Assembly: GCA_023475165.1 (NCBI GenBank)
Contig: JAMCWA010000034.1
Span: forward strand, 31,081 to 95,080
DNA from: Bacillota bacterium
GTDB lineage: Bacteria > Bacillota > Sulfobacillia > JAMCWA01
DNA: 64,000 bases
Direction of reading: 5' to 3'
Shown here: piece after piece, positions 3,184-27,318 of the stretch
Layout of the letters: every line of letters begins with the position of its first letter
How positions within the stretch are numbered: the first letter of the stretch is position 1
Notes under the pieces: generated by a model
Told to the model about the DNA's origin: nothing
What the model saw: the letters and a program-made list of their open reading frames with translations, nothing else
Database searches by the model: none
Translations under genes and position numbers: made by a program

Positions 3184-3639
3184 ATGGCCGAAAGACACTC
3201 ATATCAGGAGGCCATTGATATTTTGGGGGTCGCACCTTATACCTTCCGTCAACTTCTAGATGACTACTGCGATCTGGTCTTCTCGGAAGAGGAAAGGGCC
3301 AGTGGGGAGCTAACTGCAGAGCAGCTGGAGACCCTGAAAAAGATAATTCAGCTCCGAGGGGAAGGTAAGGCTAAGGACAAGATCCGCGAATTCCTGTCAG
3401 AATCCCGGACGGATGAACCCCAGGAGGGAAAGGAATCCTTCCTCGTAGAAAAGATGGAACAGCTCGCCCGTGAGCTAAGACGGAGTGAAGACCGCCGGGT
3501 TGAGGACCGGGACAAGCTCTTGACAGCCCTGATGAGAACGCAACAGGAGATCCAACACCTTCGCTATGAATTGTCCCGGCAGACCTCGCGCAAGGAGAGA
3601 AAGAAAAAAGGCTTGTTCTCGCGCCTCTTTGGCCCCTAG
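3184..3639 (+). CDS. Hypothetical coiled-coil protein with possible N-terminal MerR-like HTH
   Basis: ATG 3184 is preceded by GGGAGGTG. The N-terminus (HSYQEAIDILGVAPYTFRQLL) resembles a MerR-type HTH, and the remainder is charged and coiled-coil-like. The TAG stop lies inside repeat copy 1. Confidence 0.4.
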   Translation: MAERHSYQEAIDILGVAPYTFRQLLDDYCDLVFSEEERASGELTAEQLETLKKIIQLRGEGKAKDKIREFLSESRTDEPQEGKESFLVEKMEQLARELRRSEDRRVEDRDKLLTALMRTQQEIQHLRYELSRQTSRKERKKKGLFSRLFGP

Positions 3640-4003
3640 GAGACTGCTGACGAACTGCGTTTTGAGTGGTTAACCCGCCCGGGAAAAGCCGCCATAGTCT
3701 GTGACATTTCTATGGCGGCCGCACTCCTGGCGGCTTTAGCCAAAAGCCGCCATAGTCTGTACTGCGCTTGATCGCGATCGTACTTCTGGCGGCTTTAGCC
3801 CAATCGTAAGGGCGAGACCTCAAATCAGCCCAGATGCTAGGAGCGACCAGGCTCCGAGGCGAGGCATACTAGGTGGTACGTTGAGCGAGGAGCCGCCGGA
3901 GCGACAATCGGCAATAATAACGCCCCTTTAATAAACAGGTTCTTTCTGGCAGATTGCGCCACACCGCAGATGGGTGTTTTTCAGCGGTCTCCTAGGAGAC
4001 TGC
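3636..4003 (+). repeat. Modular intergenic repeat, full-length copy 1 (boxB ... boxA)
   Basis: Starts CTAGGAGACTGCTGACGAACTGCGTTTTGAGTGGTTAACCCGCCCG (boxB) and ends CCGCAGATGGGTGTTTTTCAGCGGTCTCCTAGG (boxA). The termini are imperfect inverted repeats (GGAGACyGCTGA). Internal tandem hairpin subunits (GCCGCCATAG...CTATGGCGGC and CTGGCGGCTTTAGCC, twice). Confidence 0.85.
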
Positions 4004-4030
4004 GATCTACGAAGGGATGAGGAAAGCGGT

Positions 4031-4300
4031 ATGTGTCCACTCTTGACGCCACAACTTCTCTGGGGCCTTGTCCTGGCCCTGTTGTTAATTTTCTTTTCTG
4101 GTTATTTCTTTGACCAGTTGAACAGGAAAGGCTTTCTTTCCGGCCGCCTGGCCACGTGGCTGGATCTACTGGTGGAGGGGAGCGTTTTTTTTGCCCTAAC
4201 TCGGGTTATTCTTAACTTGGATTGGCCAAAAGTATTCGTCGTCCTGGGAATCTATGCCCTGTATGGAGCTTATGTCCTGTATTCGGAAGCAAGAAAATAG
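4031..4300 (+). CDS. Small membrane protein (2 predicted TM helices)
   Basis: The internal ATG at 4031 has a GAGGAAAG SD. The product is hydrophobic (LLWGLVLALLLIFFSGYFF...). The upstream part of the longer ORF lies inside repeat copy 1. Confidence 0.35.
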   Translation: MCPLLTPQLLWGLVLALLLIFFSGYFFDQLNRKGFLSGRLATWLDLLVEGSVFFALTRVILNLDWPKVFVVLGIYALYGAYVLYSEARK

Positions 4301-11119: not shown

Positions 11120-12282
11120 AGGACAACAATTGCGCCCAAGCAGATGGTGTCATTCAGCGGTCTCAAGGGGGTGGTTTTCTGCCCGAGTCAAGTATCGAAG
11201 GTAAGGAGAAAGGCCAAGGCGCCGCCCGCCACCGCCACCGAGGGCCCGAGCAAAGACGCGAGGAAGACCACGCCAGGGGCGGGCCGCTCCTGGTTCTGGC
11301 GGGTCCGACCGCTGTGGGAAAGACTGAACTGAGCATCCGCCTGGCCAAAGAGGTGGGAGGAGAGATCATTAACGCCGACTCCACCCTGGTATACCGCTTC
11401 CTCGATGTCGGTACGGCCAAACCAACCGTGGCGGAAAGGCAGGGTGTTCCGCACCACCTCATTGACATCCTTGACCCCAACCAACCCTTTAGCGTGGCCG
11501 AGTTCTGCGTCCTGGCGAGGCAAGTTATCGTCCAGGTACAAAGCCGGCGCCACTTGCCTATCCTCGTTGGTGGAACAGGGCTTTACTTAAAGGCGCTGGT
11601 AGAAGGGTATGAATTCGCCGAAACGCAGGCCGATATGGGTTTCCGGGACTACCTCCGCCGGTTAGCCCAGGCCCAAGGTCCGGTGGCACTCCACAGCCGC
11701 CTAACCCAGGTGGACCCGGGGAGAGCCGCCAGAATCCATCCCCACGACGTCAAACGGGTCATCCGGGCCCTCGAGATTCATCAGCAATTGCACAGCCCCA
11801 TGAGTCAAGTGGAGGCTGCGCGGGCACCAGGATACGAGGTTCTTTTCCTTGTCCTGACCAGGCCCCGGGAGACCCTCTACCGGCGCATCGATCAGCGGGT
11901 CCTGGGGCAGATTAGGGCGGGACTGGTAGAGGAAGTGGCTCTTCTCTTGTCGCGTGGTTACGACCCACAGCTCTTCCCCTTGCGGAGTCTGGGTTACAAG
12001 GAGATCATTGCCTATCTCAAGGGGCTCTGTAGCCTGGAAGAAGCCATTCGGCTCATCCAGCGCAATACCCGGCGATTGGCCAAACGGCAATTGACCTGGT
12101 TTAAGGGACAGAAGGGAATAACCTGGATTGAGGTCGGAGAAAATACTGAAGAAACTCTAGCAGCGATTACCAGACAGGTGGAAGAAAAGTGGGGCCCTCT
12201 GGAAAGAGGCCTAGCTCACCCCTCAAGCGATCAATTGCTCAGAAAAAAGACTGGCGAGGAAGAGGGATGTCTGGTAAAATAA
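11029..12282 (+). CDS. miaA: tRNA dimethylallyltransferase
   Basis: P-loop (GPTAVGKTELSIRLAKE) and conserved core. The only canonical in-frame starts (ATG 11029, TTG 11047) lie inside mutL and would add a roughly 85-aa low-complexity extension, and a repeat fragment sits at 11124-11167. The true start is probably downstream and non-canonical. Confidence 0.75.
   Translation: MSGSLSLPTWTPDFFKDNLSKTGAVLPAKIEDNNCAQADGVIQRSQGGGFLPESSIEGKEKGQGAARHRHRGPEQRREEDHARGGPLLVLAGPTAVGKTELSIRLAKEVGGEIINADSTLVYRFLDVGTAKPTVAERQGVPHHLIDILDPNQPFSVAEFCVLARQVIVQVQSRRHLPILVGGTGLYLKALVEGYEFAETQADMGFRDYLRRLAQAQGPVALHSRLTQVDPGRAARIHPHDVKRVIRALEIHQQLHSPMSQVEAARAPGYEVLFLVLTRPRETLYRRIDQRVLGQIRAGLVEEVALLLSRGYDPQLFPLRSLGYKEIIAYLKGLCSLEEAIRLIQRNTRRLAKRQLTWFKGQKGITWIEVGENTEETLAAITRQVEEKWGPLERGLAHPSSDQLLRKKTGEEEGCLVK
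11124..11167 (+). repeat. Repeat family, terminal fragment (copy 2)
   Basis: ACAATTGCGCCCAAGCAGATGGTGTCATTCAGCGGTCTC aligns to the boxA end. It lies inside the mutL 3' end and the miaA 5' region. Confidence 0.6.
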
Positions 12283-12579: not shown

Positions 12580-12813
12580 ATGACAAGCGGTCTTGCCTAT
12601 TACCCAGGCCAGGGAAGGCAGTTTTGCCTCTCATCAATTGATTTAGCTTTAGGAAGCGTAGCCAAGGGATGAGCCTGAGCCTGGTTTTCTATGGATTCTT
12701 GGTCTGGAAAGAGGGCCAAGATTTTTTCTTTTTCCGGCAGGATTTTTGTTGGCAGAGAACGAATACTTAGTTAAGAAACTTAATGAAGCCCAAACAGGCC
12801 CGCAAACTACTGG

Positions 12814-12916
12814 GGGACTGCTCGCAAACTGCGGTTTGCGCGGTCATCCCGCCCGGGATACCGTCAGGGCCAGAGCGCTCCAGAATGCCCAGAGGCTATG
12901 GAGGGCCGGTCTCCCG
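12814..12916 (+). repeat. Repeat family, copy 3
   Basis: GGGACTGCTCGCAAACTGCGGTTTGCGCGGTCATCCCGCCCGGGATACCG...GGCCGGTCTCCC, colinear with copy 12. Confidence 0.7.
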
Positions 12917-12950
12917 ACAAAGCCGTTTGGACTTGAGAGGAGGATAGTTC

Positions 12951-15503
12951 TTGGGAGAGGAGAGCAAGGCTTCTTTCCATAACCTGGCTTGGACCGTAAC
13001 CGAGGGAGCCATTTGGGCGGTTGGGCTTCTCTTTTCCCAACCCGGGGAGCAGGTGGTTCTTGCCCAATGTAACCGCTCCGGGGCTCTAGCAGGGCCACCG
13101 AACACTGTTAGACGGGGGGACATGTCACAAGGGGAAGGATCTCTCCAGAACAGCCCAGGCTCCCTGGACGAAGCTCGATTGGCCTGTGGAGGTTGGATCA
13201 ACGTTACCGAAAAACCGGGGGAATATTTCTCGCCGTCCGTCGTCAAAACGGCGGAGAGACTCCACGTCTTTTGGATCGGTCAAGAAGGCGAGGAATACCT
13301 GGTTTATGTTCGTGGGTATGCCACCCGCGAGGAGGCCGGAAGCGAAAGCGGCAGGCCCGTGTCCCTGGGGGCGGTTCACCAAGAAGAGGCTTATCCCTTG
13401 GACGAAGGCATCCCCATCTCTAAGACCAAAGAGAGGGCCTATAACCTGGCAACTTGCCCTGATCAGGGGGGAGGGGTCTGGGCCTTCTGGGAAGCCTGGT
13501 CAGGAGAAGGGGTATCGCTAAAGGGACGCCACTGGGAAAGGGAGACCGGGTGGTCCGAGACTTTCACCATTCCCACGGGTACGGCCCGGGCCTACTGGCC
13601 AACCCTGGTGGCTGCTGACGATCGCCTTTGGGTAGCCTGGATGTCACCCAACGATTCCGCCGACGGCTACGACATCATGCTAGCCTCTTACCAGGATGGG
13701 ACCTGGACCGCGCCCGTACGGGTCAATGAAACCCGAGGTTTTCACCTCTACCCATCCCTGGGACTGGATCAGGCCGGACGAGTCTGGGTTGCCTGGAGCC
13801 ACGACTCCCCAGAGGACTACTACGCTGACCTGACCAGCTCCGTTCCTTACCTGCAAACCCCCTGGGCTCGCCGCAAGCGCAACCTTTGGTTTAAGAAGTT
13901 TCGTGTCGCCCTGCGGGGGACTGATGGTTTCCGCTGGTGGGCCCTTGATTCCGCAGGAGCCGGAGAAGTTCCTGTTTTCGACCACGCCTTTTGGCCTGTT
14001 ATCAGTTTTGACCCCTGGGGTCGAGCAGTGTTGCTGGTCAGAGACTATGAAGCCAAAAGCCAACTCTTCCGCGTCCAGTTGGCCGTCGCAACAGCTAATG
14101 GTTGGCAGGTCGTACCAGTGGGCGGTGGCGGTTCTATCGTCCTCGCACCGGCGCGGGCCGCTTTTATGGGGGATCTTCTCCGTCTGGCCTGGGCCTCCAA
14201 TCCGGACGGCCTTGGGGAGGAGAGCCAGCCTGAATTTCAGGTCCTGCGGATTAGCGACTGGCCAGGTTCGGCCATGCGGCCTGAGGTTATCAGCGGGCAA
14301 CCCGCCAGGCCCAATAGCCAGCCGGTGCAAGAGCGCGCCAGAGAGCCAGAACGGTCAGACGATGAGGCCAACGATCCTCCCTTCTCGCGGGAAGGGGAAG
14401 GTTCAGGAGCGGGCGCCCCTTCTAGCCCGCTCTGGGGTCTTCCGGCCACTTCAAAACCGGGGGAAAGCTCGGCAGTCGCCTCTCGTACCCAGGTGGGTCC
14501 CTGGCGCGTCCTTTTCGGGAACATCCATATTCACACCGAGATTTCCAAGTGCCGGCGGCCCACGAGCCACTCCCTTGACCTGAATTACCGTTGGTGCATG
14601 GACTGTATGGGGCAGGAATTCGCCTCCCTAACAGACCATGCCGAGACCAAGACCGCCTACCAGTGGTGGCTTAACCGCAAAACTGCCCGCTTTTACAATA
14701 CCGACACCTTTGTTACCCTTTTGGGTTACGAATGGACCTTCAATCTGAGGGACCGCCAGGTGCGCCATCACGGGCATGTCAACGTCTATCTCCGTGGCGA
14801 AAGCGAGCAATACTGGGGAGCTAGGGCGGAAGGAAGCAACTCCCTGGAAAAGCTCTGGTCCCTCCTCCCAGCCGGCGAGGCCCTGGCGATTCCCCACCAC
14901 CCGGCGGCCTACCCTTTCCAACGCAATTGGGACTGGCACGATCCGGAACGGGAACCGGTGGTAGAGATCCACCAGGACCGGCGCGGCTCCTTCGAATACC
15001 GGGGTTGCCCCGGCGGGACGGTCCTTTCGGCAGAACAGCTCCTCGATGGCTGTTTCGTTCAGGATGCGCTGGCCAGAGGCCACCGCTTGGGCTTTGTCTC
15101 GGGGGGCGACCATCAAGGGCTTTCCCTAACGGCTGTTCTGGCGGCCGGTTGCAGCCGCGAGGACATCTTTGCGGCCCTGAAGCTACGGCGGTGCTATGCC
15201 ACCACTGGGGGGAGGATCCTTCTTTTCTTTGCGATTGAGGGTGCCCCCATGGGCGCTGAGGTACACTTGGGAGATCATGGCATTGAAGGTCTGGTTCAGG
15301 TGAGGGGGACGGATGTCTTGGAATCCGTGATCATTATCAAGAATAATCAGGACTGGCTGGTTAAGGATTTGAGGAATTTGAGCACATGGGAGGCCAGGGT
15401 ATCTTTTGCTGACGTCGAGGCCCGGCGAGGGGATTTCTATTACGTCCGAGTGGTACAAAGAGACGGAGAGCTGGCCTGGGGGAGTCCCATTTGGATTAAA
15501 TGA
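12951..15503 (+). CDS. Two-domain protein: N-terminal BNR/Asp-box beta-propeller plus C-terminal PHP-domain metal-dependent phosphoesterase (DUF3604-like), paralog 1
   Basis: TTG start with a GAGAGGAGGA SD. Asp-box (SYQDGTWTAP) and repeated W-rich blades, then a P/S-rich linker. The C-terminus has an HxH PHP motif (FGNIHIHTEIS), LTDHAE, HHP and a conserved tail (YYVRVVQRDGELAWGSPIWI). Confidence 0.6.
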   Translation: MGEESKASFHNLAWTVTEGAIWAVGLLFSQPGEQVVLAQCNRSGALAGPPNTVRRGDMSQGEGSLQNSPGSLDEARLACGGWINVTEKPGEYFSPSVVKTAERLHVFWIGQEGEEYLVYVRGYATREEAGSESGRPVSLGAVHQEEAYPLDEGIPISKTKERAYNLATCPDQGGGVWAFWEAWSGEGVSLKGRHWERETGWSETFTIPTGTARAYWPTLVAADDRLWVAWMSPNDSADGYDIMLASYQDGTWTAPVRVNETRGFHLYPSLGLDQAGRVWVAWSHDSPEDYYADLTSSVPYLQTPWARRKRNLWFKKFRVALRGTDGFRWWALDSAGAGEVPVFDHAFWPVISFDPWGRAVLLVRDYEAKSQLFRVQLAVATANGWQVVPVGGGGSIVLAPARAAFMGDLLRLAWASNPDGLGEESQPEFQVLRISDWPGSAMRPEVISGQPARPNSQPVQERAREPERSDDEANDPPFSREGEGSGAGAPSSPLWGLPATSKPGESSAVASRTQVGPWRVLFGNIHIHTEISKCRRPTSHSLDLNYRWCMDCMGQEFASLTDHAETKTAYQWWLNRKTARFYNTDTFVTLLGYEWTFNLRDRQVRHHGHVNVYLRGESEQYWGARAEGSNSLEKLWSLLPAGEALAIPHHPAAYPFQRNWDWHDPEREPVVEIHQDRRGSFEYRGCPGGTVLSAEQLLDGCFVQDALARGHRLGFVSGGDHQGLSLTAVLAAGCSREDIFAALKLRRCYATTGGRILLFFAIEGAPMGAEVHLGDHGIEGLVQVRGTDVLESVIIIKNNQDWLVKDLRNLSTWEARVSFADVEARRGDFYYVRVVQRDGELAWGSPIWIK

Positions 15504-15549
15504 CAGTTGGCATGAGACAGTCCAGCTTCTGCCAGCAGGAGGAGGAGAA

Positions 15550-17430
15550 AAAATGCGGGGAGAAGTAGCCGGGCGGGGTAACGGTACGGCCACCATTCAT
15601 CCTGATGTTCCGGTGCGTGTAAAGGCACGGGGTAGTTGGGTGATTACCTATACGGCTGGGGAAAGGGGGATCGAGGTTGGAGGAAGCGTCCGTTTGGAGA
15701 TCCCCAACGGTTTCAGTATGCCCCAACTCCACTATCCAGAACTGCCGGGTCACACCAGTGCCACCTGTTCTAACCCCAGGGTCAAGCTCCAACTGACCCT
15801 GGACTGGCCAGCGGGGCGTCGGGCGTATGTAACCCGTTGGGGGCGACACGTTTACATCAAGGTCCTGGATGAACGACTGGCCCCGGGCGAGACCATTACC
15901 ATTACTTATGGTAACGTCCACCGCTTTGCCTTTGTCGGGGCCGAAGCGCCGATCCTGGCCGATCTCGTGGAGTTCACCGTGGCGACGGACACCGATGGGC
16001 AGCGCCGGGCCCCCTTTAGCGGCTACTACCTGCTGCCGGAGTCACCTAGGCTTAGGATCATCAATGGATCGGCCAGGACCTTGCGCGTCCTGGTGCCTTC
16101 CCAGGCCGAGGTGGGTAAGCCGGTGGAGGTTTCCGTGGTGGCGGAAGATGAATCCGGCAATGTGGCCACTGACTTTCAGGGCGAGATCAGTTGGTCTTCC
16201 CCCGATGAGACGGCCATCCTCCCGCCAATGACCTCCTTCGTGGGGAACCAGCAGGGCATCCACCGGCCCGAAAAAGGTATCACCTTCCTTACCCCCGGGG
16301 AGAAACGGATTCGGGTGGAGGGGCCCAATGGACTGGTAGGCGAAAGTCCTCCGCTAGAGGTCGGGGATACGGCGCGAGAACTCAAGATCTACTGGGGCGA
16401 CCTGCACGGACATACCGCTCTTTCCGACGGCTTTGGGACTCCAGAAGATTACTACCAGTATGCGCGGGAAGTGGCCGGCCTTGACTTTGCGGCCATTTCC
16501 GATCATGCCCAGTATATGTCTGATGAGGACTGGGAGCACATCAAGGACGTCGGAAGGCGGTTTTACCAGCCCGGCCGCTTCGTCACCATCCTGGGTTACG
16601 AGTTCTCGCACAACCCGGTCAAGCCGCCTTACTACGGCGACAAGTGCGTCTACTACCCGGAGCTGGAGGGACCCCTTCTCCGCGAAACGGATATGTGGCA
16701 CGAAGAGTACGTCGACCTGCCCTCCCTCGGAGAGCAATTTAAGGCCCACGGGGCCTTAATGGTGATTCATGCCCACGCCCATGGGGTTACCAGCTACTAT
16801 GACCCGCACTTGACGCGGCTTTACGAGATTCACTCCATCTGGGGTTCTTCCGAATACCCCGGCAACCCGCGACCGGTACTTTCCTTTCACCGGCAGGACG
16901 CTTCCCAGGACTGTGCTCAAGCCGCTCTGGCCAAGGGTTTTCGGGTGGGTTTTACCGGCTCTTCCGACTGTCACATGGGGCGACCGGGCTACACCCGCTG
17001 GTTGGCAAGGGTCCCGGCCTATAGAAATGGTCTGGTGGCGGTGCTGGCTTCCGCCCTGACTAGAAAGGAGGTCTTCGGTGCGCTGTGGGATCGCCGGTGC
17101 TACGCAACCACAGGCGAGAAGATCCTCCTGGATTTCACCCTCGAGGGACATCAGATGGGCGAGGAGTTGACACTACCGCCGGGTCAGAAGAAGATCAGGG
17201 CACGGGTCAAGGTAACGGGAACGGGTGACCTGGGTCCCCTCACCATCGTCAAAAACGGCCGGGACTTCTACACTTACCAGGGTCTGGGGCCAACGGCGTC
17301 CTTTGAATGGGTGGATCAAGAGATTGGCGGACCATCTTACTATTACTTGCGGGTAACCCAAAAGGATGGTGCTACAGCCTGGTCCAGCCCGATCTGGGTT
17401 GATCAGTCTAGCTTTTCGCAAGATTGCTGA
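15550..17430 (+). CDS. PHP-domain metal-dependent phosphoesterase, DUF3604-like, paralog 2
   Basis: Internal ATG 15550 with a GGAGGAGGAG SD. PHP motif (WGDLHGHTALSDG) and C-terminal tail (YYYLRVTQKDGATAWSSPIWV). The N-terminus is a beta-sandwich-like domain. Confidence 0.6.
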   Translation, partial: KMRGEVAGRGNGTATIHPDVPVRVKARGSWVITYTAGERGIEVGGSVRLEIPNGFSMPQLHYPELPGHTSATCSNPRVKLQLTLDWPAGRRAYVTRWGRHVYIKVLDERLAPGETITITYGNVHRFAFVGAEAPILADLVEFTVATDTDGQRRAPFSGYYLLPESPRLRIINGSARTLRVLVPSQAEVGKPVEVSVVAEDESGNVATDFQGEISWSSPDETAILPPMTSFVGNQQGIHRPEKGITFLTPGEKRIRVEGPNGLVGESPPLEVGDTARELKIYWGDLHGHTALSDGFGTPEDYYQYAREVAGLDFAAISDHAQYMSDEDWEHIKDVGRRFYQPGRFVTILGYEFSHNPVKPPYYGDKCVYYPELEGPLLRETDMWHEEYVDLPSLGEQFKAHGALMVIHAHAHGVTSYYDPHLTRLYEIHSIWGSSEYPGNPRPVLSFHRQDASQDCAQAALAKGFRVGFTGSSDCHMGRPGYTRWLARVPAYRNGLVAVLASALTRKEVFGALWDRRCYATTGEKILLDFTLEGHQMGEELTLPPGQKKIRARVKVTGTGDLGPLTIVKNGRDFYTYQGLGPTASFEWVDQEIGGPSYYYLRVTQKDGATAWSSPIWVDQSSFSQDC

Positions 17431-17506
17431 TCGACTGCGGAAGGAGAGCTCTTGAGTAAGGCTTACCCTCAAGCAGACGATGAAACTAATTCCGACGGAG
17501 GCATCA

Positions 17507-18499
17507 ATGATGAAAGCAATGGAAACGTATCAAAGAAGGTACAGTCAGATCCCCCTCTTTGACCCCACGGCTGGTAAGGTGGTGGTGGGGCCGCCAGGGG
17601 AAGGGTCGGGCAACTGGGCCGGGGCACCCAGCGTGCTCTACGATCAGGGCGCAGGCAAGTTCTACCTTTATTACCGCCTGCGGCGTCCCCGTGGTCAGGG
17701 ACGCGGCTTTGCCTGCCGGGTGGCGGAGTCCACGGACGGCCTACACTTTCAGGACATCTGGGAGGCGCGCAAGGAAGAGCTGAACACCTCCTCCCTGGAA
17801 AGGGGCTGCCTTTATCAGGAGACGGATGGGTCCTGGCGCCTGTATTTGAGCTACGTGGATCCGGCCGACCAACGCTGGCGAGTGGACCTCCTGGAGGCGG
17901 CCTCTCCCAAGGAATTTGACCTTTCACAACGCCATCAGGTCCTCACCGCCGCCGCGTCTGGAGTCGAAGGGGTGAAAGATCCCTATGTCATCAAATTAGG
18001 CGGGCTCTACTATATGTTCTTGAGCTATGCTCCCTCTCCCCGCGAGGCGGATGAAAAGACCAGGAACGATATGCACGCTACCTCCGACGTCTTCAATACT
18101 GGAATAACCACCTCGGAAACCGGTCTGGCCCTCAGTGCCGACGGGAGAAACTTCCGCTGGGTAGGCGGGGTCCTGGCACCCGGTAAGGGCTGGGACCGTT
18201 TCACCGCCCGCATCACCTCGGTTCTCTATCAGCCTCCCATCTTTCACGTTTTTTACGACGGTTCAGCCTCGGTTCAGGATAACTATGAGGAGCAGGTGGG
18301 ACTGGCCATCAGCTTCGACCTGCAAAGCTTCCGCCGCGTGAGCGAGGATGCCCCCTTAGTAGTCTCACCCCATGCCTCGGGGTCCGTCAGGTACCTGGAC
18401 GTCATCGAAGTCAGTGGCCGGCTTTATTACTACTATGAATTTGCCCGTCCCGACGGCAGCCACGACCTGAGAGTCGAGGTGGTTAGACGTGAATCCTGA
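17507..18499 (+). CDS. Glycoside-hydrolase-like five-bladed beta-propeller protein (GH130/GH43-superfamily-like)
   Basis: ATG 17507 with a GGAGG SD. DP/W-rich blades (VKDPYVIKLGGLYYMF; FYDGSA). Family assignment is tentative. Confidence 0.45.
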   Translation: MMKAMETYQRRYSQIPLFDPTAGKVVVGPPGEGSGNWAGAPSVLYDQGAGKFYLYYRLRRPRGQGRGFACRVAESTDGLHFQDIWEARKEELNTSSLERGCLYQETDGSWRLYLSYVDPADQRWRVDLLEAASPKEFDLSQRHQVLTAAASGVEGVKDPYVIKLGGLYYMFLSYAPSPREADEKTRNDMHATSDVFNTGITTSETGLALSADGRNFRWVGGVLAPGKGWDRFTARITSVLYQPPIFHVFYDGSASVQDNYEEQVGLAISFDLQSFRRVSEDAPLVVSPHASGSVRYLDVIEVSGRLYYYYEFARPDGSHDLRVEVVRRES

Positions 18500-20186
18500 C
18501 TTATATAACCTCCGAGAAAAAACAGCCGTCGCCAGGCAGGAATGGGTTGAATCCACCCTGGCCAGACTCTCCTTGGAGGAAAAGATAGGGCAGCTTTTCA
18601 TGGTCACCTTTGCCGGGACCGAGATTTCTCCGGAACTGGTAAACTTCCTTCTTGGTCATCATATTGGTGGGGTGACCATTGGCGGCCGGAATATTACCAG
18701 TCCCGCTCAGATTGCCGCCCTGAACCTGGGACTGCAGTCAGCCTTCAAAAATGCCGGTGCCCCCCCGCTCCTCGTTTCTTTGACCCAGGAAGGGGGGATT
18801 GTCACCCGGTGGCACTATCCGGCCACCATCGTCCCTTCGGCCATGGCCATCGGGGCCACCGGCTCTTTGGAACTGGCCAAGGAGTGTGCCCGGGTGACCG
18901 CTCGGGAGTTGCGGGCGGCCGGTTTTAACCTCAACTTTGCCCCTACGGTAGACGTAAACAACAACCCGCTAAACCCCGTCATCGGTACCCGGTCTTACGG
19001 TGAAGTGCCGGAGCAAGTGGCCAGGTTCGCTGTAGCCGCCATCCTGGGACAGAGAGAGGTCGGCCTCGCCTCTTGTGCCAAGCACTTCCCCGGTCATGGG
19101 GATACCAGCGTCGATTCTCATCTTGGGCTGCCGGTGATACCCCATGGACTGGAACGGCTGGAAGAGGTGGAACTGGTCCCCTTCCGGGCGGCCATTGCCG
19201 CCGGGGTGGAGACGGTGATGACGGCCCACATCCTCTTCCCGGCTCTGGACGGCCAAAGGCCAGCCACCTTGTCCCGGGCTGTTCTGACGGGTCTGCTGCG
19301 CGAACGACTGGGTTTTGCCGGCCTGATCATCACCGATTCCATGACCATGGAGGCCATCGCCGCCAATTACGACCTGGGCGAGGCCGCTGTCCTGGCCCTG
19401 GAGGCCGGGGCGGACATCCTGCTCACCGGTGGAGACAGGAAAACCCAAGAAGAGATGTATCAGGCGGTCCTAAAAGGAGTGGAAAATGGCCGTTTGGGGA
19501 TCGATCAAATCGAAAAATCCCTGCGACGCATCCTGGGCTTGAAGTGGGACCTGGAAGTGGGGAAAGATCTGGGGCTTTATGCTGAGCAGTCCCAGCAATC
19601 TTCCGTGGGACACTCCGCCGCGCCGGTTGTTTCCTGGCCAGTGCCGGGGCATCTGGATGTGGCCCGAACAACGGCTCGCCGCTCCCTGACCCTGGTCCGC
19701 GATCGGGACGGCCTCGTACCTTTGCGGCTCACCCCCGGCCAGAAACTGGCTCTCATCGAGTTTCGCCTGGTTCGCTTTTCGTTGGTGGAAGAGTCCCGGC
19801 GAACCTCCCGTTATCTGAGCCAACTTTTCCAGAGCCGCTATCATGGCGTGACATCCCTTACTTTGGACCCTTCCCCTTCCCAAGGAGAGAAGAAAGCCGC
19901 CCGAGACCTGGCGGCGGCGGCCGACCTGGTGGTGGTGGCTACCCGTAACACCAATGCTTATGAGGAGCAGGCTCGTCTGGTCAGGGAACTTCTGGCTTTG
20001 GACAAGCCCGTGGTGGTGTTGGCTATCCGCAATCCCTATGATCTGGCCGCCATCCCGGAGGTGGGGAGTTACCTGATAACCTACGGCGACGCCCCTGTCT
20101 CTTTGGAGGCGGCGGTGGCTTGTCTTTTCGGCGATTTCGCACCTGTGGGGAGGTTACCGGTGACCTTGCCCGTCGGAATCGGCTAG
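18489..20186 (+). CDS. Glycoside hydrolase family 3 protein (NagZ-like beta-N-acetylhexosaminidase) with C-terminal domain
   Basis: Motifs EKIGQLFMV, AKHFPGHGDTSVDSHLGLPVIPH and TDSMTMEAI. GTG start overlaps the previous gene. The TAG stop is donated by repeat copy 4. Confidence 0.78.
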   Translation: MNPDLYNLREKTAVARQEWVESTLARLSLEEKIGQLFMVTFAGTEISPELVNFLLGHHIGGVTIGGRNITSPAQIAALNLGLQSAFKNAGAPPLLVSLTQEGGIVTRWHYPATIVPSAMAIGATGSLELAKECARVTARELRAAGFNLNFAPTVDVNNNPLNPVIGTRSYGEVPEQVARFAVAAILGQREVGLASCAKHFPGHGDTSVDSHLGLPVIPHGLERLEEVELVPFRAAIAAGVETVMTAHILFPALDGQRPATLSRAVLTGLLRERLGFAGLIITDSMTMEAIAANYDLGEAAVLALEAGADILLTGGDRKTQEEMYQAVLKGVENGRLGIDQIEKSLRRILGLKWDLEVGKDLGLYAEQSQQSSVGHSAAPVVSWPVPGHLDVARTTARRSLTLVRDRDGLVPLRLTPGQKLALIEFRLVRFSLVEESRRTSRYLSQLFQSRYHGVTSLTLDPSPSQGEKKAARDLAAAADLVVVATRNTNAYEEQARLVRELLALDKPVVVLAIRNPYDLAAIPEVGSYLITYGDAPVSLEAAVACLFGDFAPVGRLPVTLPVGIG

Positions 20187-20345
20187 GAGAGTGCCGACGA
20201 ACTGCGTTTTGAGTGGTGAACCCGGCCGAGCAAAGACGGCACAATCTATGAAAGGCTTGATAATGAACGCTCTTCTGGCGGCTTTAGCCCAATCGTTAGG
20301 GCGAGACCGCGGAAAAAGCCCCATCTTTGTGGCACAATCGCCAGG
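20184..20345 (+). repeat. Repeat family, copy 4
   Basis: CTAGGAGAGTGCCGACGAACTGCGTTTTGAGTGGTGAACCCGGCCGAG...CTGGCGGCTTTAGCCCAATCGTTAGGGCGAGACCGCGGAAAAAGCCCCATC. Its TAG is the GH3 stop codon. Confidence 0.8.
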
Positions 20346-20425
20346 AGAAGTTCTTCGAGGATCTGTCGCAAATTCTAACGATTATGGCGCAATAAGAGTA
20401 GCTTTTTGCGTGGGAGGGAAAAGCG

Positions 20426-22078
20426 GTGGGTGACTACGTCCTGGTGGAGGGATTTAACGAGATTTATGATGCCTCGACGGCTGTGGAGTTGAGCTCTCCT
20501 CTCAGTTCCTACACCTTAACCCTTAAGGCCTGGTTGATAAAACAAAAGAAAGGGCAAGCGGTGGCCTGGAACACGGCCAAAATCCCCGAAGAGGCCTTGG
20601 GGAAGCGAGTGATCCTGGTCTGGCCGATGGCCCTGGGAATGGGCTCACGGGTGCCCCAGCCCTCAGGGCAGTTTGATCTTTATTTGAACTCCGAGAAACT
20701 TCTTTCCTTTCGGCTGACCAAGAACCCGGAATTATGGGGCGGCAAAGAGGTCTCTTTCCTCTTCCAGGTCAAACGAGTGGCGCTGGAAGAGGAGCTGGCC
20801 AGCTACGGACTGGCCTTTCTCTCCTTGCCCTGGTCTAAGGTAGAGATCGGCACCAGGGCCACCATCACGGTACGACCCGCAGGTCCCGAGTCGGAACGCT
20901 GGTTCCGGATCGATAAACCCTTCGGTGGAGAGGCGACAAAGAGCAATTTCCTGGAGGACGGCCTGGCCCGCATCCTGGTGGGTAAAAGGGAGAGACACCG
21001 CCTGGGGCCATATCACCTCTTTTGGGGCGATCTTCACACCCATTCTGGCGGCCACACCGGTGCTGACGGCTGCGGCGATGGGAGCATCGACGAGAACTAC
21101 CTTTACGCCCGCGACGTTTCTAACCTGGACATTTACGCCCTGACGGATCACGACTGGCAGCTGACCTCGCCGGCCATGTGGCGGCAGCGACAGGAAAAGG
21201 CCTTCTCCTATTACGAGCGGGGAAACTTTGTCACTTTCAGCGCCTACGAGTGGAGTTGCCGCGGCGCTACCCGTCACTATGGCCACCGGAACATCTACTT
21301 TCTGGACGACGGCCAACCGTTCTTCTCGTACAAGGACGAGAACTCCGATACACCGGCCAAACTGTGGGCAGCCCTGGAGAAGACGGGAGCCGAGGCCCTT
21401 TCCATCGTCCACCATCCGTCCCTGGCCAGGATCGCTTATAACCAGAACTGGGAATACCACAACCCCAAGTTCGAACCTGTCGCCGAGATCTTCTCCGTCT
21501 GGGGAAGCTCAGAAAGCTTTGATAGCCCCGATCGTTCCACTTTCTCCGACCATGTCCCGGGAACCTTCTTGCTGGATGCCCTGCGGAGGGGATACCGTCT
21601 GGGGTTCATTGCCTCCAGCGATGGCCATGACGGCCACCCAGGGGGGGCCGAAGCTTGGACCGGCCTGGCTCTCCGCCCCAAACCGTACGGGAGCGGCTTG
21701 GTGGCGGTCTATGCGGAAGAACTAACCCGGGAGGCCGTTTTCGAAGCCCTGCGCCGGCGTCGCGTCTACGCCGTTACGGGGGCCAGGATCCAACTAGGTT
21801 TTTGGGTAGCTGGTCATTTCATGGGGGAAGAGACGCATATGAAAGCGGGAGTCAGGCCGGAAATCCGGATTTCGGTCGAAGGGATCTTTCCCCTCGAACT
21901 GATCGAGGTCGTCCGGGACGGTCACGTTATCGGGCGCTGGGGCTGGGGAGAAAAGAGGGCGGAAATCTTGCACGTCGACGAGACACCTCCACCCGGTCTG
22001 CATTTTTACTACCTCCGGGTTCGCCAAGGAGATGGGGAAATGGCCTGGTCCAGCCCGGTCTGGGTGGTGGTTTCATGA
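20426..22078 (+). CDS. PHP-domain metal-dependent phosphoesterase, DUF3604-like, paralog 3
   Basis: GTG start with a GGGAGGG SD. PHP motif (WGDLHTHSGGHTGADGCGDG) and tail (FYYLRVRQGDGEMAWSSPVWVV). Confidence 0.6.
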   Translation: MGDYVLVEGFNEIYDASTAVELSSPLSSYTLTLKAWLIKQKKGQAVAWNTAKIPEEALGKRVILVWPMALGMGSRVPQPSGQFDLYLNSEKLLSFRLTKNPELWGGKEVSFLFQVKRVALEEELASYGLAFLSLPWSKVEIGTRATITVRPAGPESERWFRIDKPFGGEATKSNFLEDGLARILVGKRERHRLGPYHLFWGDLHTHSGGHTGADGCGDGSIDENYLYARDVSNLDIYALTDHDWQLTSPAMWRQRQEKAFSYYERGNFVTFSAYEWSCRGATRHYGHRNIYFLDDGQPFFSYKDENSDTPAKLWAALEKTGAEALSIVHHPSLARIAYNQNWEYHNPKFEPVAEIFSVWGSSESFDSPDRSTFSDHVPGTFLLDALRRGYRLGFIASSDGHDGHPGGAEAWTGLALRPKPYGSGLVAVYAEELTREAVFEALRRRRVYAVTGARIQLGFWVAGHFMGEETHMKAGVRPEIRISVEGIFPLELIEVVRDGHVIGRWGWGEKRAEILHVDETPPPGLHFYYLRVRQGDGEMAWSSPVWVVVS

Positions 22079-22278
22079 TGTTTTTCCTGTCAGGCAGGAA
22101 CCTGATTGCCCACCGCGAAATATACTTTTGTCAGAAGTTGAATGACGCTGCCGTTTTTCAAGGAAACACCCTTGCCCCGCTCGGTACGCTGAGGCATAAG
22201 AAGGTCACAGACGACGGTTGATCGGCGGGGACTCCAGCGCCCACTTATGAAGTAAACCTACGGAAGGTAAGGAAAAGG

Positions 22279-23505
22279 ATGAAGAAACGACGTCTCCTGG
22301 CTACCGGAAAACCAGAGCTCTTGAAAAATATCAACGTCGGGCTGATCCTGGACATCATCAAGGGGCAAGGACCCATCTCGCGGGCGGAAATCGCCCGGGT
22401 TTCGGGGATTAGTCCTCCCACCGTCTCCCACCTGGTCAACCGCCTGGCGCAAGAGGGGGTGGTGGAAGAAATCGGCTTTGGCACTTCCATCGGCGGGCGG
22501 CGGCCAGTTCTGGTTCGCTTTAATCCAGCCGCCGCCTTTGTACTGGGTGTCGACGTCGGTGGCAGCCGCTGCTCCGCCGGCCTCACCGACCTGGCCGGTC
22601 GTATCCTGGCTAAAGAGGAGGTCCATTATCCACCCCGTGGCGGCGAGAGGTCGCTGATGATCATCGAGGACTTGATCCGCCACCTCCTGGAACAAGCCCC
22701 GGGTGGGAGGAAGAAGGTCAGGGGAATCGGCTTGGGGGTACCGGGTTTTGTCGATAGCCGACAGGGTCGGGTTTTGCTGGCGGCGGGCCTGCGATGGGAG
22801 AATATGGCACTGAAGGAACATTTGCAGAATTCCTTCGACCTGCCCGTCTTTCTCGACAACAATGTCCGGACCCTGCTCCGGGGGGAGAAGTGGTTTGGTC
22901 AGGCCCGGGGTAAGGAGAATGCCCTGTATATTCTCATTGGTCTGGGTATCGGGGCCGGAGTCATGATCGGAGGCGAGATTTACCCCGGGACGGATCAGGC
23001 GGCCGGCGAAATCCGCTATACCCTGCTGGATCGCCGTGCCCTACAATTGGCGCCGGAACCCGGCGGCTTTTTGGAGGGGAGGGTGGCGGCGGGCGGTGTG
23101 ACTGCCCGGGCGCGGGAAGGCTGGATGAGCACCGGGTCCTGGCCACCGTCACCAGTCCAAACGGCGGGAGAGCTCAAAGTCTCCGAGGTTTTCGCGGCGG
23201 CGGGGCAGGGGGATCCCTTAGCTAACAAGGTGACCCAGGAGATGGTGGACTACCTGGGAATGACGGTGGTGAACCTGGCCTGCCTGCTTAATCCGGAAGT
23301 GGTTATCTTTGGAGGTGAAGTACCGGAAGCGTACCCCGAACTGTTGGAAAGAGTAAGGGGTATAGTGTCTCGCTTTTGCCCATATCCACCGGCGCTGGTC
23401 GGTACGGAGTTACGGGAAGATGCCGGCATCCTGGGCTCAGTGGCCGGGATCCTGGCGCAGGAAAGAAGGACCTTGTCTTTCTTGGGCTATGATCTCCTGG
23501 CCTGA
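22279..23505 (+). CDS. ROK-family transcriptional regulator (NagC/XylR-like)
   Basis: N-terminal HTH (ISRAEIARVSGISPPTVSHLVNRL) followed by a ROK sugar-kinase-like fold. SD is AAGGAAAAGG. A rho-independent terminator lies downstream. Confidence 0.8.
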   Translation: MKKRRLLATGKPELLKNINVGLILDIIKGQGPISRAEIARVSGISPPTVSHLVNRLAQEGVVEEIGFGTSIGGRRPVLVRFNPAAAFVLGVDVGGSRCSAGLTDLAGRILAKEEVHYPPRGGERSLMIIEDLIRHLLEQAPGGRKKVRGIGLGVPGFVDSRQGRVLLAAGLRWENMALKEHLQNSFDLPVFLDNNVRTLLRGEKWFGQARGKENALYILIGLGIGAGVMIGGEIYPGTDQAAGEIRYTLLDRRALQLAPEPGGFLEGRVAAGGVTARAREGWMSTGSWPPSPVQTAGELKVSEVFAAAGQGDPLANKVTQEMVDYLGMTVVNLACLLNPEVVIFGGEVPEAYPELLERVRGIVSRFCPYPPALVGTELREDAGILGSVAGILAQERRTLSFLGYDLLA

Positions 23506-23576: not shown

Positions 23577-23657
23577 TCTCAAGGAGTCTTCGCGCCCTTT
23601 GCGTCCACCAGACGTATAATATCTCGGAGTTTGCAGCTGCTCTGGAGGGTAATGGGC

Positions 23658-24626
23658 ATGGAGAAAAAGGAAGACGAGATGGGACGCCCGACCTCACTCG
23701 AGGAAGTATTTGATTGGCTGGGAGCTGGGAAGATCAGCTCCAGCGAGGCCTTTGGGCTTTTTCAGGAGGTGGAGAAAGGGGCTTTGGCAGAACCGGACAG
23801 AACCAATCAGAAGGGTTTGGAAGAGGCCATGAAGGAACTGGACAGCCTGATCGGTTTGACGGAGGTAAAGGAGCTGGTCAAGGAAATCCAGGCTTTTGTA
23901 GAGATTCAGAGGCGGCGGGCCAAAGAAAACCTGGTCAGTGAGCCCCTGGTCCTGCATATGATCTTTAAGGGAAATCCGGGTACAGGTAAGACCACCGTGG
24001 CCCGCATCCTCGGAAAGATCTTTCGGGAGATGGGGGTCCTGCAACGCGGCCACCTAGTGGAGGTGGAGCGGGCCGATCTGGTTGGGGAATACATAGGACA
24101 TACCGCCCAGAAAACCCGCGAGCAGATCAAGCGCGCTCTGGGGGGAATTCTCTTCATTGACGAGGCCTATGCCCTGGCCAGGGGCGGCGAAAAGGATTTC
24201 GGCAAGGAGGCCATTGATACCCTGGTCAAGTCCATGGAGGACCACCGTGACAATCTCATCTTGATCCTGGCCGGCTACCTGCAGGAGATGGAGACTTTTG
24301 TCCGCACCAACCCCGGGTTGCGTTCGCGCTTCCCGATTCATATCGATTTCCCGGACTATGATGTGCAGGAACTGCTGGAAATCGCCGAACTGCTGCTAAA
24401 GAAGCGCCAATACCGCTTCAGTCCAGAGGCCAGAGAGGTTTTGACCGCCAGTCTACTGCAAAAGACGGCATCTAAGGAGAGCCACTTCGGCAACGCCCGC
24501 CTGGTAAGAAACATCATTGAGAAGTCTCTTCGGCAGCAGGCGGTCCGCTTGGTCGGTCGTGACCGGCTCACCCGAGACGACCTCATGCTGATCACCCGTT
24601 CCGATATTTTGGGCGCCTTGGACTAG
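23658..24626 (+). CDS. spoVK: Stage V sporulation protein K-like AAA+ ATPase
   Basis: CbbX/SpoVK-type AAA with Walker A (GNPGTGKTTVARILGKIF) and Walker B (ILFIDEAY) motifs. ATG 23658 sits 8 nt from a GGAGGG SD. The TAG stop lies within repeat copy 5. Confidence 0.8.
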   Translation: MEKKEDEMGRPTSLEEVFDWLGAGKISSSEAFGLFQEVEKGALAEPDRTNQKGLEEAMKELDSLIGLTEVKELVKEIQAFVEIQRRRAKENLVSEPLVLHMIFKGNPGTGKTTVARILGKIFREMGVLQRGHLVEVERADLVGEYIGHTAQKTREQIKRALGGILFIDEAYALARGGEKDFGKEAIDTLVKSMEDHRDNLILILAGYLQEMETFVRTNPGLRSRFPIHIDFPDYDVQELLEIAELLLKKRQYRFSPEAREVLTASLLQKTASKESHFGNARLVRNIIEKSLRQQAVRLVGRDRLTRDDLMLITRSDILGALD

Positions 24627-24672
24627 GAGACTCCTCGGAAACCGCGGTTTGACTGGTTAACCGTAACCGGCC
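24624..24672 (+). repeat. Repeat family, degenerate boxB (copy 5)
   Basis: TAGGAGACTCCTCGGAAACCGCGGTTTGACTGGTTAACCG. Its TAG is the spoVK stop. Confidence 0.6.
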
Positions 24673-24691: not shown

Positions 24692-25294
24692 GTGAATGAC
24701 TGCCTCATGGTGGGCAAACCAAATGTCGGTAAAACCCTCTTCCTTCTCAACTTCGCCGAGTTCCTGGGGGTGAAAATAGGCGAGATCACCAAGGAAAATC
24801 CGGACGGTAGTCTGGAGAGCAAGATTTACCGCCTAGAACAGGCCAAGGCGACCCTGGTCGGCAGTGAACCTCATACTACCAGAGGGCTCCTTTCTTTAAC
24901 CGTAGGACTCCCCATGGGGAAGGGCAAGACCAGACTGACCCTGGTGGATTCTACCGGCCTCACCGATTCCATCCACACGGTGGCGGAAGTCCGGCGGGCC
25001 ATGGTTCAGACCCTGCGGCGCTTGCGAAAGGCGGATCTGATCCTCCACCTGTTGGATGCGGCGGAGATCGGGGAGTCTCCTGCGGCCCTGGCTGAGATTG
25101 ACCGGCAAATCGCCCGCTACGCCTCCAGCCGCTGTCCCTATGCCATCCTGCCCAACAAAATGGACCTCCCGGCGGCCATGGCCGGCCTGCGGTCAATCAA
25201 GGAGGCCTTCCCAAATCAGAACATCCTGCCAGTCTCAGCTCTGCAACGGACGGGTTTTCGGGAGGTGAAGGCGTTTGTCAGTAAGAATCTCTGA
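24692..25294 (+). CDS. Small GTP-binding protein (HSR1/MMR-type GTPase domain)
   Basis: G1 GKPNVGKT, G3 DSTG and G4 NKMD motifs. GTG start with a GGGAGGAGGGG SD. Confidence 0.55.
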   Translation: MNDCLMVGKPNVGKTLFLLNFAEFLGVKIGEITKENPDGSLESKIYRLEQAKATLVGSEPHTTRGLLSLTVGLPMGKGKTRLTLVDSTGLTDSIHTVAEVRRAMVQTLRRLRKADLILHLLDAAEIGESPAALAEIDRQIARYASSRCPYAILPNKMDLPAAMAGLRSIKEAFPNQNILPVSALQRTGFREVKAFVSKNL

Positions 25295-25910
25295 GGTCCT
25301 GGTCGACCTTCTAGCCATTGCCTTGGTGGGACTGGCGATCAAGTTCATGGACGACTGCCTTGACCAGGAACTGGACAGCGCCGCGGGGGCGCGAAATTGG
25401 GCCTGCTGGCTGGGCCGCGGCCTCGTCCCGTACGCCATGCTCTGCCTGGGTCTGGCGGCCGGAATGCGTCCGGCCTTGAGCGTTCCGCTTTTCCTGGCCG
25501 CCTATGCCCTGGGGATGGTCAACGCCCCCCTGACCCTGAATCCCTCTGGATTTCTGGCTGCCTGGGAATCACTGACGGTACTTCTCCTCGGGCTGGTCCT
25601 TTTTGGCTGGCGAGCCATTCTTTGGGCTTCATGTCTAATTCTGGCCATACAAATGGGTGACGACTTCTTGGACAGCCGGTCCAGCGAACCAGCGGAGTAC
25701 AAGGCGCAACGGGGCTGCTCAGAATCCGGGCCGGTAGGAGCATCCTTACCCTCAAGAGGGACCTCGCGTTGGCCTTCCTTGGATCAGGTGGAAAGGGCCC
25801 TGATCTTTCTGATTCTTCTCCTGGTGTCCTTACGACTTCACTTTCTCCCAAGCCTTTACGCCTTGTTGGCCGCGGCCTTCATTATGTTCCTGACGAGCAG
25901 GCTACCCTAG
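25275..25910 (+). CDS. Integral membrane protein (hypothetical)
   Basis: Multiple hydrophobic helices. TTG start with a GGAGGTG SD, overlapping the previous gene. The TAG stop is donated by repeat copy 6. Confidence 0.4.
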   Translation: MSVRISEVLVDLLAIALVGLAIKFMDDCLDQELDSAAGARNWACWLGRGLVPYAMLCLGLAAGMRPALSVPLFLAAYALGMVNAPLTLNPSGFLAAWESLTVLLLGLVLFGWRAILWASCLILAIQMGDDFLDSRSSEPAEYKAQRGCSESGPVGASLPSRGTSRWPSLDQVERALIFLILLLVSLRLHFLPSLYALLAAAFIMFLTSRLP

Positions 25911-25975
25911 GAGACTGCTGACGAACTGCGGTTTGAGTGGTCAACCCGCCCGAGAAAGTGGGTCGGCCGTGCGGA
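25906..25975 (+). repeat. Repeat family, boxB (copy 6)
   Basis: CCTAGGAGACTGCTGACGAACTGCGGTTTGAGTGGTCAACCCGCCCGAG. Its TAG is the stop of the membrane-protein gene. Confidence 0.8.
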
Positions 25976-27265: not shown

Positions 27266-27318
27266 CTAAGGAGACCGCCGAAAAACCCCCATCGGTGTGG
27301 CGCAATCCGCCGAGGAAT
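27266..27318 (-). repeat. Repeat family, boxA-type end in the ynbB leader (copy 7)
   Basis: GGAGACCGCCGAAAAACCCCCATCGGTGTGGCGCAATCCGCC is the reverse complement of the boxA end plus the GTGTGGCGCAATC module. Confidence 0.65.

Follow-up and report, generated by a model that had tools for sequence, protein, structure and literature searches.

Intergenic repeats in a spore-forming Bacillota genome

The stretch of DNA analysed here, which we refer to as the window, comprises 64,000 nt of contig JAMCWA010000034.1 in the Bacillota assembly GCA_023475165.1 and has the gene content of a spore-forming member of this phylum (mutS, mutL, miaA, hfq, spoVK, glnA, lexA and dinB, together with dinG, surE, sigK and a gene for a small acid-soluble spore protein). 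Its spacers hold a family of dispersed, modular repeats bounded by inverted ends, of which 13 boxB-type ends and 16 boxA-type modules (hereafter B and A) were found at 18 intergenic loci by profile and BLAST searches of the window (Table 1). The units are 33-369 nt long and carry stop codons in all six frames, and an open reading frame (ORF) at 54312-54719, which overlaps one of the copies, had no match in Pfam.

An earlier, sequence-only reading of this DNA had described a full copy at 3636-4003, and our own reading of 3635-4003 found the sequence as described. When this 369-nt copy was used as a BLAST query against the window it recovered two large inverted matches, 30327-30630 (85-90% identical) and 54338-54568 (70%), and further matches at 12810, 20183, 24623, 25906, 27269, 28828, 39212, 40473, 47404-47618, 48291, 51624 and 56548. 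The weak copies at 11122-11165 and 54219 were upheld by nhmmer searches with profiles made from the B-type ends (13) and the A-type modules (16), which brought to light no further copies in the window. All of the sites listed by the sequence-only reading were recovered in this way, including the copy it had placed at 56505, which is real and aligns from 56540. Two sites are additional to that list: a weak BLAST match at 42410-42463, and a mini inverted pair at 54702-54734 which was among 35 matches (<=3 mismatches) to the 14-nt terminus TAGGAGACYGCTGA, compared with 9.1 +/- 3.3 in shuffled sequence. At the same threshold boxB matched four sites and boxA six, each against 0 expected in shuffles.

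The repeats cover 2388-2421 nt, or 3.7% of the window, close to the 4% estimated previously. In the core of the window (404-57150) they account for ~30% of the non-coding DNA and are present in 17 of 38 spacers, figures which are approximate as the gene list was curated by hand. Every copy lies between genes, as had been claimed, though in five cases it runs over the stop codon of the gene upstream. The B ends share a mean pairwise identity of 74% (range 48-94%). A CRISPR or tandem array was considered and rejected: Tandem Repeats Finder returned nothing, and the gaps between copies are irregular, from 855 to 14567 nt.

As short-read contigs of this organism break or turn chimeric at the repeats, an assembly artefact or local segmental duplication had to be weighed as the source of the family, and this is refuted. 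The Logan contigs of SRR22746115 and the sister assembly GCA_023379645.1 reproduce the copies at 99.9-100% identity, the copies differ from one another by 6-50% and have different flanks in every case, and more of them occur at an unrelated locus (see below).

Anatomy of the copies

Oriented copies begin with (CC)TAGGAGACTGCTGACGAACTGCGGTTTGAGTGG... (end B) and finish with ...CGCAGATGGGTGTTTTTCAGCGGTCTCCTA(GG) (end A). The two ends differ slightly and have in common a 12-nt inverted core, GGAGACyGCTGA; the terminal inverted repeats (TIRs) extend over 12-16 nt (TAGGAGACyGCTGA ... TCAGCrGTCTCCTA), and the outer 12 nt of B and A are the inverse of each other, in agreement with the previous description of the boxA and boxB termini. 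Between the ends lie up to four kinds of module: a hairpin module H (AAAGCCGCC ... GGCGGCTTTAGCC) which is present 0, 1 or 2 times per copy, an internal module A' (GGGCGAGACCGCTCAAAAATGCCCAGATGC) which is an A end, diverged and inverted, a hairpin module C with GGAGCGAC on either side, and a module D which is richer in A+T. Within composites A' is preceded by T-TA or T-TG, and A' with A makes up a second, inner inverted-repeat pair enclosing C-D. The copies combine these modules in several ways. Four run from B to A (3635, 30326, 47427 and 54219), four have B, with or without H, and A' but no outer A (12807, 20180, 40472 and 48283), and in one B faces B (51622), whilst solo ends are of B type at 24620, 25904 and 42412 and of A type at 11122, 27267, 28825, 39205, 47384 and 56540. 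The modular shuffling noted earlier is upheld by the variable number of H modules and by the inner A'-C-D-A unit, which is also found alone.

Copies also make contact end to end: at 3993 the A end is followed by 11 nt of a further B end, and a solo A end abuts the next B end at 47430. The CTAG-centred junction palindrome of the sequence-only reading, GCGGTCTCCTAGGAGACTGC, occurs at 3984-4003, and a variant of it with CCAGG at 47420-47441.

The many solo ends (6 A and 3-4 B), and the presence of IS21-type genes just outside the window, might suggest that the repeats are the decayed remains of full-length insertion sequences (ISs) and not a family of its own. We consider this very improbable, as H, A', C and D are common to the copies, are non-coding in all frames and show no similarity to transposases, and complete two-ended units of 107-369 nt recur. 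IS21 elements have TG...CA ends, and their ends and target duplications are unlike those of this repeat family, on which ground the IS21-type genes (Logan contig L007) were rejected as its probable driver.

Flanks, target site and stop codons

The dinucleotide directly outside the GGAGAC core is TA at 8 of the 13 B ends and at 5 of 10 terminal A ends, and the ends without a flanking TA mostly have CA or TG, one transition away. The base preceding TA is always a pyrimidine (C at 12 ends, T at 4), from which we infer a target that by symmetry would be Y-TA-R, in most cases CTAG and in many CCTAGG. Of six two-ended copies, three are flanked by TA at either side, among them a stand-alone A'-C-D-A unit on a contig of the sister assembly (L008, see below) with the flanks cttgT-TA-GGGCGAGAC ... 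GGTCTCC-TA-Gaggg, and the rest have one-transition variants. Flanking 4-mers are identical in only one of the six, and all are YTAR-like or one change off. In two copies, 54219/54568 and the first copy on L008, TA is perfect on both sides yet the outer bases differ, so that duplication of 2 bp would be slightly favoured over duplication of 4 bp. The flanks, Y-TA...TA-R and mostly C-TA...TA-G, bear out the CTAG/TA preference which had been suggested for the family.

The tetranucleotide CTAG is three-fold depleted in the window (83 observed, 238 expected from base composition), yet 17 of these CTAG sites, and 7 of 13 CCTAGG sites, fall within the repeats, which are 3.7% of the sequence. A link to stop codons is seen in the genes: in each of the four real genes with C-TAG at its end a B end begins exactly at the stop, compared with 0/8 of those ending in A-, G- or T-TAG (Fisher p about 0.002). 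The stops overlapped by repeats are TAG at 3637, 20184, 24624 and 25908, and TGA at 28837 which lies within a repeat end. Genes with repeat-borne stops end within 1-3 codons of the orthologous stops in the relative described below, which argues that the insertions fell on, or a few codons before, the native stop, and the stop codon now used is that carried by the repeat junction.

Copies elsewhere and absence from the nearest relative

The glutamine synthetase GlnA encoded in the window is 91% identical to that of one uncultured relative and at most 75% identical to all others, with about 70% to Moorella. DinG is 100% identical to MCL5038928.1, encoded on a 97-kb contig of a metagenome-assembled genome (MAG) named 'Firmicutes bacterium' at NCBI, and its 90% cluster also holds MCL4423854.1 of GCA_023379645.1. 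A contig of that assembly (L009, JAMCQG010000002.1) is 99.92% identical to the window over 3.9 kb, which makes it the same species; it carries the same insertions, with no insertion polymorphism at 99.9% identity. Logan contigs of SRR22746115 are 100% identical to the window.

The contigs of the nearest relative were reached through GlnA (L004, L005 and L006) and DinG (L010). An nhmmer search of 31 kb of its syntenic DNA with the same gene order (L004 and L010) found 0 copies. For example, the glnA-lexA spacer is 9 nt long in the relative and 555 nt long here, of which a 306-nt copy forms part. This comparison of presence and absence is a coarse one, as the spacers themselves do not align. Since copies within the species have diverged from one another, the family would have been active over a long period, in the lineage of the window only.

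Copies outside the window were sought by translating the repeat in its most open frame, making a peptide profile and searching the protein database for mis-called genes. The profile found MCL5039709.1, a 64-aa hypothetical protein of which the C-terminal 42 residues are the translated A'-C-D modules, and its cluster mate MCL4426415.1, which is close in the accession series to MCL4423854.1; the N-terminal part of both has no coding counterpart in the window. As MCL5039709.1 is 781 accession numbers from the DinG entry MCL5038928.1, we infer that the MAG of the window also encodes this protein, on a different contig, 30 kb in length. The contig of MCL4426415.1 (L008, JAMCQG010000328.1 of GCA_023379645.1) holds two copies at a locus unrelated to the window, the first a stand-alone A'-C-D-A unit 92.6% identical to window 3806-3995 with TA on both sides, the second a diverged B-A'-C copy. 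Judged by its structure, the stand-alone unit shows that the inner pair A' and A can make a complete element in its own right, which supports full copies being composites. The sequence-only reading had named two outcomes that would refute it, and neither came about: the family is present beyond the region of the window, and the copies are parts neither of an IS nor of a CRISPR array, as spacing is irregular, Tandem Repeats Finder returned nothing and Pfam showed no transposase domain in the window ORFs tested.

On the same contig a short-chain dehydrogenase fragment at 1-244 (Rossmann motif VVVTGGARGIG...) stops precisely where the left TA of the unit lies, and the remainder of the gene is absent downstream. 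NCBI calls the read-through from this fragment into the repeat as the protein MCL4426415.1, and MCL5039709.1 is its counterpart in the sister MAG.

Searches of public collections agree with the earlier statement that this is not a described family, as there was no match in genome, metagenome, virus, plasmid or Rfam collections or in the literature. The boxB pattern gave only two chance matches (Larkinella and Mycobacterium) in species-representative genomes, boxB and boxA patterns gave 0 matches in JGI metagenomes, IMG/VR had 0 matches to the repeat, blastn of the full copy against PLSDB had none, and the terminal 12-mers retrieved only unrelated PCR primers from the full text of the literature. 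Rfam at gathering threshold reported only a glycine riboswitch in the whole window, outside the repeats, and at E<=10 it gave only chance miRNA matches for 3600-4040 (14-16 bits against a threshold of 93).

The repeats also leave marks on the assemblies. The start of L009 (1-266) is chimeric: nt 1-127 correspond to window 47507-47633, which is repeat, and nt 128-266 to the reverse complement of window 45938-46076, a misassembly for which the repeat was the seed. Both ends of Logan contig L003 likewise fall inside repeats.

Predicted folding

The structure predicted for two-ended copies is a long stem-loop in which the ends pair with each other, with a 16-bp terminal stem (z = -4.9, -6.6 and -6.7), whilst one-ended copies are no better folded than shuffles (z = -1.5 and +0.25). 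RNA folding, a check suggested in the sequence-only reading, thus separates two-ended from one-ended copies. A simple promoter/terminator scan found none inside the full copy, and across 6-7 H copies, which are recent paralogues, the H stem has no compensatory double changes, only decay and wobble pairs.

Such folds invite comparison with structured elements of the BOX/ERIC type, which would be spread by a route independent of TIRs (recombination or gene conversion) and retained by the host since their stem-loops tune operons, through mRNA 3'-end protection, attenuation or processing; transposition would then not be chiefly responsible for where they are now found. Pneumococcal BOX elements are modular, intergenic and predicted to form stable RNA structures, and the repeats here resemble them in distinct end modules, in a variable internal module (H, 0-2 times), in intergenic position and in stable predicted RNA. 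The modular build with its 0-2 H hairpins, the strong folds of two-ended copies, the occupancy of 17/38 spacers and the placing of copies within co-directional gene strings, eight of nine in the same orientation to transcription, would all suit a regulatory role. However, we give this explanation little weight, though an RNA function may exist as a further layer on top of transposition: the H stem lacks compensatory changes, one-ended copies have no special fold, the full copy has neither terminator nor promoter by the simple scan, and absence from the nearest relative means that this is not an old, conserved regulatory feature. BOX elements are specific to Streptococcus and are not known to have a clear TIR with a target-site duplication or a transposase, whereas the copies here show clean inverted ends flanked by TA which, with the stand-alone unit at an unrelated locus, suit transposition better. 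Of the BOX likeness drawn in the sequence-only reading, the variable number of an internal module stands, as an analogy of organisation only.

The same reading had likened the family to REP/BIME repeats, and this likeness is not supported. Elements of the REP/REPIN or IS200/IS605 type (PATEs) would be moved as single-stranded DNA by a Y1 HUH transposase (RAYT/TnpA) and inserted 3' of CTAG with no duplication. The repeats are, like REP, BIME and REPIN, extragenic and dense, with inverted pairs such as the doublet at 51622-51728 and copies within operons; their left flank is a constant CTAG, and the mild orientation bias could mean a preference for one replication strand. REP units are, however, palindromes of 20-40 nt after GTAG, whereas the units here are 100-370 nt, far above that size, and single B or A ends are not GTAG-plus-hairpin and do not fold alone. 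Over 12-16 nt the ends are inverted repeats in the true sense, which is not known as a feature of IS200/IS605 elements, with TA on both sides, and neither a RAYT nor any other Y1 transposase was seen among the window ORFs tested. Movement of this kind is thus distinctly improbable.

A probable non-autonomous transposable element family

Taken together, these results make it likely that the repeats are a lineage-specific, non-autonomous family of DDE-transposon derivatives, that is, MITEs (miniature inverted-repeat transposable elements), targeting TA within YTAR/CTAG. The MITE-like character suggested by the sequence-only reading is supported by the TIRs, the TA/CTAG flanks, the non-coding, dispersed and diverged copies, their absence from syntenic DNA of the closest relative and their presence at an unrelated locus of the same species. 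Although undescribed, unusually dense and modular, the family belongs to a familiar kind of element: nothing in it goes beyond known bacterial MITEs, and it does not open a new category.

In the mechanism we propose, the core GGAGACyGCTGA is presumably bound and cleaved by a DDE transposase encoded elsewhere in the genome, and the element would insert into the TA of a YTAR site, preferably (C)CTAG(G), with duplication of TA or of the 4-nt YTAR. As the element begins with GG and ends with CC, each insertion would rebuild CTAG or CCTAGG at both junctions, and head-to-tail palindromes, abutting copies and composites are what would then be expected. In composites the inner unit A'-C-D-A would sit at a TA beside a B-H arm, the transposase could use either A' with A or B with A, and deletion and decay would leave single ends behind. 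The upstream gene could take its stop from the TAG at the terminus or from the TGA in GCTGA, and from such a repeat-borne stop codon both the tolerance of insertions in the last codons or stop and the high density inside operons would follow. Copies in same-strand spacers are probably co-transcribed with the genes, and two-ended copies would form long stem-loops in the RNA.

Several points weigh against this interpretation. Pfam found no transposase domain among 10 window ORFs without evident function, and no autonomous element with these ends was present in the window, on L007 or L008, or in the collections scanned. Many copies are single-ended or strongly decayed, so most would no longer be mobile, and the genome-wide copy number is an extrapolation only. 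The spacers of the relative are too diverged to give a nucleotide-precise empty site, so TA/CTAG is not formally separable from conserved bases at the ends of the element. Finally, a symmetric TA target does not predict the orientation bias already mentioned, whereby 8/9 B-containing copies in co-directional spacers have B beside the upstream gene (p about 0.04 in a two-sided binomial test); this bias may come from RNA-level selection or from a strand bias of insertion.

A bolder version, which we hold to be unlikely, is that the rebuilt (C)CTAG(G) sites let the family seed itself and give rise to arrays and composites, whilst the in-frame TAG or TGA of its termini lets it saturate operon spacers. 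There the copies may have been recruited as structured RNA punctuation, and the orientation bias would then be explained. As the ends and modules match nothing in the collections searched, the transposase might in this version be one with no recognisable relative.

Comparison with known elements

The MITE reading places the family among the elements whose combination of features is reviewed in PMC2229807. One of these, RUP, is a 107-bp unit linked to IS630-Spn1 and TA targets, and is likewise short, non-coding and intergenic, with TIRs, TA at termini and targets, stops in all frames, many copies per genome and a proposed mobilisation in trans by an IS transposase (PMC2229807). Compared by description, RUP is uniform and A+T-rich with a known cognate IS, whereas the family here is G+C-rich, modular and 33-369 nt in length. 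The Correia/NEMIS elements of Neisseria also have TIRs, TA termini, size variants from internal deletion and high density, are co-transcribed with their neighbours and form long stem-loops from paired ends (PMC2229807). They differ in having ends of 24-26 bp and, in the long form, a site for integration host factor, a motif not identified here, and in their unrelated sequence and host phylum.

As to the target, MITEPsy1 of Pseudomonas syringae, an IS5-family element from ISPsy2 with the TIR GGAAGGTCTGAAAAAGCC, duplicates CTAG/YTAA (PMC3189936), and the insertion sites are thus of a similar type. Its end and the A end here (GGAGACCGCTGAAAAACACC) have GGA...CTGAAAAA in common, which is only 11 of about 18 positions. 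MITEPsy1 further differs in being 100 nt long, with few copies, in another phylum, and in its clear 4-nt duplication, compared with a perfect 4-nt direct repeat in 1/6 and TA on both sides in 3/6 of the two-ended copies here. IS5-type elements duplicate YTAR. The flanks of our copies, Y-TA...TA-R and mostly C-TA...TA-G, are also like those of IS630 and Tc1-mariner elements, IS630 duplicating TA in palindromic CTAG (PMC2577343 Table 1, citing Tenzen and Ohtsubo 1991), but no IS630-family transposase or matching TIR was found here and membership is not claimable. A likeness of position exists with the MIRUs of Mycobacterium, where the repeats also lie in intergenic spacers of operons with their ends over stop or start codons. 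MIRUs are tandem direct repeats of 40-100 bp which have no inverted ends, and in this they differ.

Catalogue of loci and neighbouring features

Table 1. Repeat copies in the window, with their strand, module order and surroundings; features adjoining or within a copy follow it.
Position	Strand	Architecture or feature	Context
3635-4003	+	Full composite, B-H-H-A'-C-D-A	TAG stop of MerR-family gene (3637-3639) in left junction
3993-4003	 	Tail of the copy above, 11 nt, TAGGAGACTGC	Fragment of a further B-type end
11122-11165	+	Degenerate solo A end	Between mutL and miaA; nhmmer E = 8e-07
12807-12920	+	Diverged B-A' copy, no outer A end	Found by BLAST and nhmmer
20180-20352	+	B-H-A' copy	TAG stop of gene 18489-20186 in left junction
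24620-24672	+	Degenerate solo B end	TAG stop of spoVK (23631-24626) in junction
25904-25958	+	Solo B end	TAG stop of gene 25275-25910 in junction; Logan contig L003 starts 6 nt inside
27267-27320	-	Solo A end	Probably in 5' leader of gene 27421-28839
Just upstream of 27267-27320	 	Promoter-like TTGATA-17-TATAAT	Read by eye only
28825-28888	-	Solo A end	Encodes last three codons (G D R) and TGA of gene 27421-28839; upstream of glnA
30326-30631	-	Near-full composite, B-H-A'-C-D-A	Between convergent glnA and lexA
39205-39253	+	Solo A end	8 nt upstream of dinB start codon
40472-40634	+	B-H-A' copy	Downstream of dinB
42412-42466	-	Degenerate solo B end	Between convergent genes; nhmmer E = 1.6e-11
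47384-47619	+	Solo A end (47384-47435) abutting two-ended B-A'-C-A (47427-47619)	
Within 47384-47619	 	Head-to-tail junction, GGTCTCCCAGGAGAG	
48283-48421	+	B-(partial H)-A'-(partial C) copy	Upstream of dinG
51622-51728	.	Two B ends facing, minimal palindromic element, 107 nt	Upstream of surE; fold z = -6.7
54219-54570	-	Diverged composite: B at 54521-54570, two H, A'/C remnants, degenerate A at 54219	
54702-54734	.	Mini inverted pair, two TIR cores back to back, TTAGAGACTACTGA gtaac TCGGTGGTCTCCCA	
56540-56594	+	Solo A end	Downstream of Nramp transporter gene
After 56540-56594	 	Terminator-like GC-rich hairpin and T-run	Read by eye only

Two of the copies in Table 1 lie in an unusually long spacer of 1.3 kb (53617-54912) upstream of the Nramp-family transporter gene. 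Besides these copies the spacer contains ~550 nt of unassigned sequence, at roughly 53617-54218 and 54735-54912, which Rfam did not match at gathering threshold. Others lie at the left edge (12807) and inside (20180) of a region of about 11 kb, 12951-23505, which is absent from the synteny of the relative, where L004 has hfq-rubrerythrin-spoVK. This region holds three paralogous genes for CehA/McbA-type (PHP-like) metallohydrolases with the common C-terminus YY.RV.Q.DG..AWSSPIW, an uncharacterised gene at 17480-18499 and, by eye only, a 565-aa family-3 glycoside hydrolase-like product and a ROK-like regulator. A 32-nt direct repeat unrelated to the family, with units at 38567-38598 and 38640-38671 (94% identical, 73 nt apart), is found at the 3' end of an MFS-type gene (37231-38586).

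Towards the end of the window, the ORF at 56758-57150 encodes only the N-terminal half of SigK, a sigma factor of sporulation, and matches positions 4-113 of the 227 in its profile. Homology ends after ...CIENEI at about nt 57132 and A+T-rich DNA follows, then a glycine riboswitch (57312-57411) and a cluster of rhodanese, radical-SAM-SPASM, MFS and PmbA-TldD-like genes. The region continues past 64000 to about 69.4 kb in L007, a Logan contig which begins 43 nt before the break in sigK, with genes of IS21 type outside the window. The arrangement resembles a sigK gene split by a skin-type intervening element; its C-terminal half was not seen, and no repeat copy lies in the 12 kb of the putative intervening region.

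Significance of the family

If the window is representative, the species would carry several hundred copies, which would be among the denser bacterial MITE loads reported, in a deep-branching, uncultured, spore-forming lineage of Bacillota for which no MITE has so far been described. The family affects how the genome is read, as short-read assemblies of the organism are broken and scrambled, with contig ends in repeats and one NCBI contig chimeric, and gene calls are spurious or altered, as in a hypothetical protein made of translated repeat and in genes whose 3' ends come from a copy. It is useful for studying the choice of CTAG targets, the use of alternative ends in composites and the tolerance of stop-codon insertions in operons.

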